A program made the position numbers and the translations under genes. The notes below the pieces were generated by a model that was given only the letters and a program-made list of their open reading frames with translations, had not been told where the DNA came from and did no database searches. Of a stretch of 5,222 nt of DNA, positions 207 to 1,005 are shown piece by piece. Source of the DNA: a virus. Lineage: Duplodnaviria; Heunggongvirae; Uroviricota; Caudoviricetes. The stretch is from IMG/VR virus record IMGVR_UViG_2602041568_000014, one strand, 5' to 3'. Within the stretch, counting starts at the first letter, position 1; each line of letters opens with the position of its first letter.

Positions 207-680
207 TTATTTCAGGCACTGAGTGCGGATATATTCCTGCGCCCCTTCCAGTTGCTTCTGCATCGTCATCAGCCGCTCTCTGAGGGTGAAATAATCCCGT
301 GTAACGGTGTCTGCCAGTTGGGGGCCGGTTGCATTATCCACGCCGGAGGTGGTGGGGGCTTCACGCACGGAACCTGGACAGGTGGCGTTGATCCGCAGGC
401 GCTTACGACCAGCGGCAACGTCAGCGCGCAGAGTTTCATTTTCAGCTCTCGCATCGGCTAATTCCCTCGAGTATTTTGCATCGAGCGCAGCAACATCACG
501 CTGGCGCACCTGCATATCAGTAATGGTTGCGTTCGCCAGCTTCAGTTCACTGACTTTTTTATCGCGCTGCGCTTTGTAGGTAATGGCGTTATCACGGTAA
601 TGGTCTGTTGCCATCCACAGCGCACCACAGGCCACCAGCAGAATAACGATAAACGCGGAAAGCATTCGGTTTATGTTCAC
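207..680 (-). CDS. Rz: Rz-type i-spanin (inner-membrane spanin subunit), 157 aa
   Basis: Translation has a short basic N-terminus (MNINR), one hydrophobic TM segment ([17 protein letters not shown]), then a long charged coiled-coil-like periplasmic domain with [14 protein letters not shown] and DYFTLRERL...MQKQLEG segments that I recall as near-identical to phage lambda Rz. It contains the embedded Rz1 frame. Start at 680 is GTG, overlapping the TGA stop of the upstream small ORF (GTGA); an in-frame ATG at 665 is an alternative. Confidence 0.85.
269..454 (-). CDS. Rz1: Rz1-type o-spanin (outer-membrane lipoprotein), 61 aa, embedded in a different frame inside Rz
   Basis: ATG at 454 is preceded by GAGGGA with an 8-nt spacer. 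The product has a signal peptide ending in the lipobox LVVSAC (Cys20), then a proline-rich mature part ([30 protein letters not shown]) resembling lambda Rz1 as I recall it. Fully nested within Rz, the classic embedded spanin architecture. Confidence 0.85.
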
Positions 681-808
681 CCCAGCAACCCCGACGAAGA
701 CAACATCATCCAGGCCATGGAAAGAAAAAGAGCAACCAGCATTAGTGAAAATGAAATGCCGACAATTACACAGAGGATCTTCGCCAGCGTTATGAGTTTG
801 TCTGACAT
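677..808 (-). CDS. small hydrophobic protein, 43 aa, single predicted TM helix; function unknown
   Basis: ATG at 808 is preceded by a strong SD (AGGGAGGA, 6-nt spacer). Product [43 protein letters not shown] is almost entirely one hydrophobic helix. Its TGA stop overlaps the GTG start of Rz, suggesting translational coupling. The longer 73-aa ORF-track version would overlap the upstream ORF and has no SD. Confidence 0.5.
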
Positions 809-822
809 GCTTAATCCTCCCT

Positions 823-1005
823 TCACGATTTCAACGCAATGACCAGTTTTGCCAGCCCATACAGCATCGGGGACACAGCAACACCGACCGCCACCCACTT
901 AATGGCAAAAGCCAGTGCTCTGCTGATGTCATCAGTTACAGGCGCTTTCAGTTCAAGGCCATTTTTCATAGTCAACCTCAACAGAATTCGTTTATACTTC
1001 GCCAT
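823..1005 (-). CDS. small protein, 60 aa, basic N-terminus and C-terminal hydrophobic segment; function unknown
   Basis: ATG at 1005 is preceded by AAGGGAGAA with a short spacer; an alternative ATG at 969 (MKNGLELK...) has GAGG plus a 6-nt spacer. C-terminal segment [28 protein letters not shown] is TM-like. The ORF-track 79-aa version starts with TTG inside the terminator hairpin and is unlikely. Stop at 823 lies 14 nt before the next ORF's start. Confidence 0.45.

Follow-up and report, generated by a model that had tools for sequence, protein, structure and literature searches.

Two small membrane-peptide genes appear to lie between the endolysin and Rz genes of lambdoid prophages

We analyzed a 5,222-nucleotide stretch of a Caudoviricetes genome (IMG/VR record IMGVR_UViG_2602041568_000014; hereafter the window) that carries the lysis cassette of a lambdoid prophage. 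An earlier note, made from the sequence alone, had described two tandem small open reading frames (ORFs) of 60 and 43 amino acids (aa) between the gene of the endolysin R and that of the spanin Rz. We located both on the minus strand, ORF60 at 823-1005 and ORF43 at 677-808, in the 482-nt gap that separates the R stop (1163) from the Rz start (680). That Rz normally comes straight after R is consistent with the Qin prophage of E. coli K-12, in which rrrQ and rzpQ overlap by 4 nt without small ORFs between them; in the window the two genes appear to be apart because one or more modules were inserted between them. Direct reading of the sequence bore out that the Shine-Dalgarno (SD) sequence is strong for ORF43 (GGGAGGA at 815-821, 6 nt from the ATG and within the 809-822 spacer between the two ORFs) and weaker for ORF60 (GGGAG at 1009-1013, just 3 nt from the ATG). 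The transmembrane segment predicted for each ORF was also recovered, as a single hydrophobic segment peaking at 2.89 over residues 11-29 of ORF43 and at 1.88 over residues 38-56 of ORF60 (Kyte-Doolittle, 19-residue window); for ORF60, AlphaFold gives a helix at residues 3-18, a break at a conserved Pro and a long confident helix at 23-59. As reported, the TGA stop of ORF43 (677-679) overlaps the GTG start of Rz (678-680) to form GTGA. Two features that the note had not mentioned, a second start at Met13 of ORF60 and a hairpin at 1040-1072, are described below.

ORF60 and ORF43 both look like genuine genes. The 399-bp module was found at a query coverage of at least 80% in 1036 of 5426 complete E. 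coli genomes (19%) and in part in 1881, and it also occurs in plaque-forming phages (PhiR12 and Shiga-toxin (Stx) phages). The two ORFs are always annotated as hypothetical, in RefSeq under WP_001151823.1 and WP_001280932.1. Loss of the frames in homologous R-Rz intervals, which had been named as the observation that would count against real genes, was looked for in 276 phage records and 47 interval variants, and the frames are kept. ORF43 has exactly 43 codons, at full length, in the 276 records, and all 24 of its DNA variants, drawn from about 240 loci, are 132 nt long. No indel was found in ORF60 in the 47 distinct interval variants, its variable columns fall 4/4/14 on the three codon positions, and column variability is 0.11 compared with 0.32 in the noncoding stretch after R. 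The ratio of nonsynonymous to synonymous substitutions (dN/dS), calculated from the distinct DNA variants among the roughly 240 fetched loci, is 0.15-0.16 for ORF60 and 0.36-0.42 for ORF43; the same loci give 0.08-0.11 for R, 0.07-0.13 for the holin gene S and 0.22-0.58 for Rz. ORF60 thus evolves like R and S, and ORF43 like Rz. The earlier view that these are real membrane-protein genes is thus upheld by conserved hydrophobic small ORFs in a lysis operon, with ORF43 abutting or overlapping the Rz start nearly everywhere.

Two plus-strand ORFs at 600-842 (80 aa) and 839-1237 (132 aa), whose third codon positions coincide with those of ORF43 and ORF60, set a trap for codon-based gene calling in this region. 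Given these frames, their low dN/dS and a highly mosaic interval, one might suppose that ORF60 and ORF43 are not genes but shadows of the antisense ORFs, or chance features of a recombination-prone spacer. We give this explanation almost no weight. The sense frames score better than the antisense ones (0.16 vs 0.28 for ORF60 and 0.36 vs 0.41 for ORF43), and the protein pattern is preserved in diverged relatives of ORF60 whose DNA differs. For ORF43, dN/dS was rejected as a strand discriminator, because the antisense frame is open and scores nearly the same. The minus strand is favoured because the plus-strand ORFs run through the terminator hairpin and into R and Rz, start codons and SD motifs are conserved on the minus strand, a replacement ATG is found in Stx phages and the hydrophobic frame of ORF43 is retained.

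ORF43, an ATG-initiated hydrophobic single-helix peptide that matches phrog_4906 (function unknown), looks as if it is selected as a fixed-length membrane helix rather than for its exact sequence, because its hydrophobic frame is kept beyond the neutral expectation and its amino-acid identity is not. In neutral simulations over the 26 differences between its two main alleles, the hydrophobic open frame survived in 3% of the trials (P ~0.03), whereas identity was not above expectation; retention of a strongly hydrophobic helix had a P of 0.05. In Stx phages the ATG is changed to ATA, and its place is taken by another ATG of the same frame, which lies five codons further upstream and overlaps the stop of ant. 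The major Shiga-toxin phages carry ORF43, often unannotated there. ORF43 is variably present, yet among the loci examined it was seen solely beside Rz and never away from it, and an R21-like lysozyme accompanied it in every one of them.

The gene order across loci is S-(DUF1327)-R-ORF60-ORF43-Rz, or S-R-ant-ORF43-Rz in the 933W-like and BP-4795-like Stx phages. On the left, homology between the ORF60-type and the ant-type intervals runs out immediately before the hairpin; on the right, it begins again where ORF43 starts. ORF43 thus belongs to the Rz flank, and the hairpin together with ORF60 forms a cassette interchangeable with ant. The R-Rz interval, an insertion hot-spot, occurs in at least eight length classes, and its small ORFs duplicate and recombine. 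One interval of 697 nt (L196) carries a tandem ORF60-ORF43-truncated ORF60'-28aa arrangement; in another of 1418 nt (L219) a gene for a 311-aa DNA methyltransferase, the sole large-protein gene found at the Rz-abutting position, lies between ORF43 and Rz with its stop overlapping the Rz start; and in one of 292 nt (L003) an unrelated 57-aa ORF ending in IRWW abuts Rz.

In all interval classes but one, the Rz start is abutted by a small hydrophobic ORF, namely ORF43, a 37/50-aa ORF of the GER2 type, a 28-aa form (MSAELIR...IRWW) or the unrelated 57-aa ORF of L003. The two genes meet at a GTGA, or else 1-8 nt separate the stop from an ATG. The ORF43 peptide is destroyed by a +1 insertion in 6-8 loci, where the shifted ORF nevertheless ends as ATGA on the Rz start. 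Rz itself, in the window, has its GTG and an alternative ATG 15 nt downstream, neither with a well-placed SD. As the abutting ORF is nearly always kept, even after a frameshift, and the Rz starts lack a well-placed SD, we infer that Rz is translationally coupled to whatever ORF precedes it, which would be the most robustly conserved property of ORF43. The rrrQ/rzpQ overlap of K-12 Qin is similar in that the Rz start overlaps or abuts an upstream stop, and differs in that the upstream ORF there is the endolysin and not a 43-aa hydrophobic peptide. The 5' end of Rz (window 651-680 and homologous junctions) exists in two alternative forms, one with the GTG overlapping ORF43 and one with an ATG (MNRVLCVV...) 7-8 nt after the ORF43 stop, and these recombine independently of the upstream ORF.

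This arrangement allows a more austere explanation, in which the ORF43 peptide has no function, the ORF merely brings ribosomes to Rz after insertions parted R and Rz, and its hydrophobicity is incidental. Such an explanation accounts for an amino-acid sequence no better kept than a neutral one (P 0.18), for frameshifted alleles that retain the stop/start overlap with Rz, and for the occupation of the same position by unrelated ORFs, including the methyltransferase, or by R itself in K-12 Qin. A pure leader, however, would need neither a constant length of 43 codons in 276 records nor the retained strongly hydrophobic helix and the replacement start of the Stx phages, and four different ORFs found in this place each encode a small hydrophobic peptide. 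We regard it as a possibility to be kept in mind, although on the unlikely side.

ORF60 matches phrog_1115, phrog_4493 and phrog_3246, all of unknown function, and its product is net cationic (+7). Its long form (823-1005) consists of a basic N-extension of 12 residues (+4), a conserved core and the long helix, while a short form of 48 aa (823-969) would start at the internal Met13 (ATG at 967-969), which is preceded by a separate GAGG at 976-979. Throughout the ORF60 family Met13 does not vary, even in long forms with unrelated acidic N-termini (P0060 and P0321). A GAGG or GGAGG lies 5-9 nt before the internal Met in 7 of 8 independent contexts of the family, and in six of the eight a rare Arg codon, AGG, supplies the GAGG, at 6-9 nt; the exceptions are L260, with a GGAGG made from other codons, and L253, with GAGA only. 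Many family members carry the N-extension M-x-K-Y-K-R-I/F-L/F-L-R-L-S/T ahead of the core Met, and its Y-[KR]-[KR] motif is kept by different codons (TAC CGT AAA in L254, TAT CGA AAA in L253). The invariant Met13, the recurrent GAGG/GGAGG upstream of it and a motif kept with different codons argue that both ORF60 starts are used.

Two starts of this kind invite comparison with the dual-start holin/antiholin genes, lambda S105/S107 and phage 21 S21 68/71. As in those, ORF60 has two in-frame starts each with an SD (GGGAG for Met1, GAGG for Met13), the longer product bears additional N-terminal positive charge, and the gene sits in a lysis cassette. ORF60 differs from them in having one helix and not two or three, in lying downstream and not upstream of the endolysin, in the size of its extension (12 residues and +4, compared with 2-3 residues), in matching no holin family and in having relatives outside lysis cassettes.

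Large-database searches found tiny proteins only, and an exhaustive HMMER profile search covering 1.84 billion proteins returned just 34 tiny relatives of ORF60 and linked it to no larger or named protein. These come from Escherichia, Salmonella, Citrobacter and a few metagenomes, and share the core M-K-N/G-G-L/I-E-x-x-A-P-x5-6-S/T-R-A-x-A-F-A-I-K/R followed by a hydrophobic helix ending in RWW or LKS; the diverged members keep this pattern with different DNA, and one protein (P0269) is a natural chimera joining two subfamilies. The genes follow the SAR (signal-arrest-release) lysozyme in the window, in GER2 and in L244-246, a soluble M15 peptidase within a Phage_holin_8/Phage_holin_3_7 cassette in L247-252, phiP27 and phiSTEC1575, a GH108 endolysin in L256-259, tail-fibre genes in two independent contexts (L255 and L260/261) and a lambda-like major capsid gene in L253. 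ORF60 is therefore best described as part of a small mobile family of 37-60 aa, dual-start and under clear selection. With relatives behind M15, GH108, tail-fibre and capsid genes, this distribution speaks against a dedicated role of ORF60 in lysis.

The M15 or GH108 cassettes with Phage_holin_8 and Phage_holin_3_7 are very common and contain no recognisable Rz/Rz1 (L247 2831-4298; L006 1019-2837; L256 100-1986). In them the ORF60-family gene is followed 1-180 nt on by a gene for a 51-60-aa lipobox protein (phrog_7528, also in phiP27). This small lipoprotein was considered as an obligate partner of the ORF60 relative in the M15 cassettes and ruled out, as it lies elsewhere in GER2.

The left edge of the ORF60 cassette is a terminator-like hairpin (1028-1072, minus strand) with a 14-bp stem at 1040-1072 and a folding energy of -21.6 kcal/mol (z -4.3). 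Since an A-tract precedes it and a U-rich tail ends it, the predicted hairpin is bidirectional in form. In the window the cassette is made up of this hairpin, a leader of about 35 nt and the gene. Every ORF60-family copy has a strong U-run hairpin 30-45 nt upstream (-19 to -30 kcal/mol, z -3 to -5); between contexts these hairpins have no sequence relationship, and all have a 5' A-tract and a 3' T-tract. Terminators also lie downstream of the family gene in L253, L254 and L260. In L253 almost the same hairpin flanks the gene on both sides as direct repeats (3437-3467 and 3669-3699), and these near-identical flanking copies suggest that the ORF60 cassette may insert by recombination at terminators. 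No recurrent sense-strand promoter for ORF60 was found in the eight contexts by eye or in a uniform scan, and no terminator between ORF60 and Rz in the window. For these two reasons, expression of ORF60 with the late genes is the simplest reading.

These observations bear on the idea that both ORFs are lysogenic-conversion morons, that is small membrane peptides expressed by the prophage that help the lysogen (superinfection exclusion and the modulation of a host membrane protein are examples) and that are unrelated to lysis. Classical morons of temperate phages are lambda bor and lom and those of the HK97 type. Like these, ORF60 is an extra gene between conserved late genes, is found in some relatives only, is bounded by terminators (upstream in every context, and on both sides in L253, L254 and L260, with near-identical hairpins in L253) and occurs at several genomic positions. 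Its family is scattered over late-operon junctions, where it follows endolysins of three kinds, tail-fibre genes in two cases and a capsid gene in one. Close relatives may carry or lack the gene, and ant can take its place. What sets it apart from morons, and makes this idea unlikely in our view, is that no recurring sense promoter of its own was found in the eight contexts, with just 30-45 nt between hairpin and start codon, and that no terminator follows the genes in the window, which would accordingly be co-transcribed with Rz. As to ORF43, it was never away from Rz among the loci seen. Neither ORF matched the PADLOC defence profiles.

A further possibility, to our mind rather unlikely, is that the ORF60 product is a membrane peptide akin to type I toxins, under the control of a cis-antisense RNA some 75 nt long that masks the ribosome-binding site of the long form. 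The conserved AAG TAT AAA of the N-extension reads TATACT on the opposite strand, with a -35-like hexamer 16-18 nt off in 7 of 8 contexts; in the window this gives a weak, hypothetical plus-strand promoter, TAGTCA-18-TATACT, at 969-998. The predicted transcript would run from the promoter through the leader to the hairpin and would be complementary to the long-form ribosome-binding site. It fits this possibility that the antisense -35/-10 pair recurs at -29 to -34 from the internal ATG in seven of the eight contexts, that the hairpins have a 5' A-tract and a 3' T-tract, that 'KY.R' (AAGTATAA) is the sole survivor in otherwise unrelated acidic N-extensions, and that ORF60 is small with one long hydrophobic helix. 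Size and hydrophobicity suit a type I toxin, a membrane peptide of less than about 60 aa, for both ORFs (43 aa and 48/60 aa, one hydrophobic helix each). The seven occurrences, however, go back in 6 cases to one homologous TATACT and are hence not independent, and with a fixed -10 a passable -35 would arise by chance about 40% of the time (our own estimate from the background rate). In addition, L254 has TAC and no antisense promoter element, A-tracts occur at ordinary terminators too, and no promoter for a toxin was found in the eight contexts. Rfam gave nothing near threshold over the interval (best 27 bits vs a threshold of 47 bits) and no match to an antitoxin RNA. Nothing like the antisense promoter and hairpin was seen for ORF43. 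The papers on small RNAs (sRNAs) of enterohaemorrhagic E. coli (EHEC) place the sRNAs beside the esterase and the holin and not between R and Rz.

A precedent among prophage membrane toxins is hokW-sokW of the Stx2 prophage Sp5, which encodes a small inner-membrane peptide promoting lysis and phage release under antisense-RNA control (PMC8621323). The hokW gene is not part of the lysis cassette, and its product is made about 1 h earlier than R (PMC8621323). ORF60 resembles hokW in being a small hydrophobic peptide of a lambdoid prophage, with an antisense control that is only hypothesised, and it has no sequence similarity to it.

The two ORFs had been taken as a possible pair, and this part of the earlier note did not stand. 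ORF43 stays with Rz where ant replaces ORF60 in Stx phages, and the ORF60 cassette also occurs far from lysis genes, so that the two are independent modules and not a functional pair. The suggestion that they form a non-canonical holin/antiholin pair, or act as a release factor for the SAR endolysin, we find very unlikely. It draws on the presence of two membrane peptides in a cassette with a SAR endolysin, on the holin-like dual-start motif of ORF60 and, for SAR release, on the constant company of ORF43 and R21-like lysozymes in the loci examined. Against it, the cassette has a canonical class II holin upstream, an S21-type pinholin whose end is present at 2959-3019 with the remainder under a run of N, and this leaves a non-canonical holin unneeded; the ORFs are not the sole holin candidates and they assort independently. 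Each has a single hydrophobic segment and not the two transmembrane domains of a class II holin, and no holin family of Pfam, NCBIfam or PHROGs matched either ORF or the 27 and 28 family members searched. A strict association with SAR endolysins holds for ORF43 in all loci seen and not for ORF60, whose relatives accompany soluble M15 and GH108 endolysins and genes outside lysis; a SAR-release role is unlikely for ORF60 on that account. Neither ORF has a lipobox or a periplasmic domain as expected of a spanin, and Rz and Rz1 are separately present. Of the libraries Pfam, NCBIfam, PHROGs and PADLOC, PHROGs alone gave matches to the ORFs, all of them to families whose function is unknown. A Gifsy defence protein was also considered and proved unrelated to the ORFs.

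Small phage proteins beyond holin, endolysin and spanin are known as accessory lysis proteins. Mu gp25 is said to be a releasin; it and the disruptin gp28 of phiKT resemble our ORFs in being such proteins, and these two act on the envelope. ORF60 differs from Mu gp25 in not being tied to SAR endolysins. The phiKT protein gp28 is described as cationic (10.1101/515445), a likeness it shares with ORF60 (+7), and phiKT is without spanins, whereas spanins are present here.

The remainder of the window fits a known lysis module. R (1163-1696, minus strand) is an R21-like SAR lysozyme (PF00959; PDB matches 3hde, 3hdf and 4zpu) with a weakly hydrophobic, Gly/Ala-rich N-terminus and an E-8-D-5-T motif, read directly; by these features it groups with the SAR lysozymes of phage 21 and DLP12. 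Rz (207-680, minus strand) is the i-spanin (PF03245, E 2.7e-47; phrog_13), and the o-spanin lipoprotein Rz1 (269-454, minus strand; PF06085, E 3.5e-20) is embedded in it. Upstream, the final 20 codons of a class II holin of the S21 type, ending in LTNLYFKIREDRRKAARGE before the stop, were read directly at 2959-3019 on the minus strand, and the rest falls under an N-run at 3020-3108. These 89 N correspond to about 320 nt in a 98%-identical locus (L015), namely the esterase end, the intergenic region and the first ~50 holin codons, so that the length of the N-run is not the true length; a 97%-identical locus has a class II holin annotated at the corresponding position. To judge from these matches, the cassette is an ordinary one of pinholin, SAR endolysin and spanin, with the holin hidden by the N-run and not missing. 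A second N-run at 144-180 has 37 N that stand for 89 nt in L015.

A sialate O-acetylesterase gene lies at 3113-4947 (minus strand). A 2026 preprint locates the sRNA genes pasA/pasC between the sialate esterase and the holin, and because of this placement the N-run at 3020-3108 probably hides a Pas sRNA besides the holin start. The same preprint locates pasD upstream of the esterase. In 4948-5222, upstream of the esterase in the window, Rfam gave only sub-threshold hits (STnc100 at 25 bits and anti-hemB at 22 bits) and no tRNA was found; an sRNA gene may be present there. Between the holin and the endolysin lies a gene for a DUF1327/YdfR protein (2149-2955, minus strand) of 268 aa, compared with 103 aa for K-12 YdfR and truncated or shorter in related loci. 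A plus-strand ORF of 104 aa (1825-2139; phrog_1853, function unknown) sits between it and R; only some related loci have it, and it looks like another insertion within the lysis cassette.

Taken together, we tentatively favour, at somewhat less than an even chance, that ORF60 and ORF43 encode late-acting, dispensable inner-membrane accessories of lysis. In a lambdoid prophage with pinholin, SAR lysozyme and Rz/Rz1, they would form part of the late lysis transcript. In this scheme Q-modified RNA polymerase would read through the hairpin, so that both peptides are made late together with R and Rz, and ribosomes ending ORF43 would reinitiate at the poorly signalled Rz start while its peptide inserts into the inner membrane. 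ORF60 would yield its 48-aa and 60-aa forms. By the positive-inside rule the short form is predicted to be N-out/C-in, and the +4 extension would keep the N-terminus of the long form cytoplasmic, which would give two isoforms of opposed behaviour, as with S105/S107. The peptides would act late on the inner membrane, most plausibly by adjusting its energisation and with it the timing or sharpness of pinholin triggering and lysis.

Several points weigh against this explanation. Many functional relatives do without one or both ORFs (L003 and K-12 Qin), and for the ORF60 relatives behind capsid and tail-fibre genes a role in lysis is not obvious. The terminator upstream of ORF60 could mean low expression. 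The amino-acid identity of ORF43 does not exceed neutral expectation in the simulation (P 0.18), and ~13 of the 240 or so loci carry a frameshift in the ORF. The antisense frames aligned with the codons of the two ORFs also stay open in every variant, at low dN/dS values (0.28 opposite ORF60 and 0.41 opposite ORF43). Finally, searches by concept, by peptide sequence and by accession found no literature on either ORF, and a survey of Stx lysis cassettes makes no mention of them.

A bolder combination may also be put forward, although we hold it to be improbable. The single-helix peptides that abut Rz (ORF43 and its analogues ending in RWW) would be a new regulatory or third spanin component, and ORF60 an antisense-RNA-gated, dual-start type I toxin recruited to late operons as a holin-independent depolariser or lysis timer.

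The lambda/phage 21 lysis cassette is among the best-understood modules, and yet a fifth of complete E. coli genomes carry two unstudied membrane-peptide genes inside it. From their sequences ORF60 and ORF43 appear to be real, common and uncharacterised small membrane-peptide genes, and their interest, which we consider moderate, comes mainly from how widespread they are, Stx phages included. They add to the study of small proteins a dual-start mobile family and a testable rule, that a small ORF abuts the Rz start, which holds in all interval classes but one. If the peptides do tune lysis timing or the expression of Rz, burst size would be affected and, in Stx phages, the release of toxin as well.

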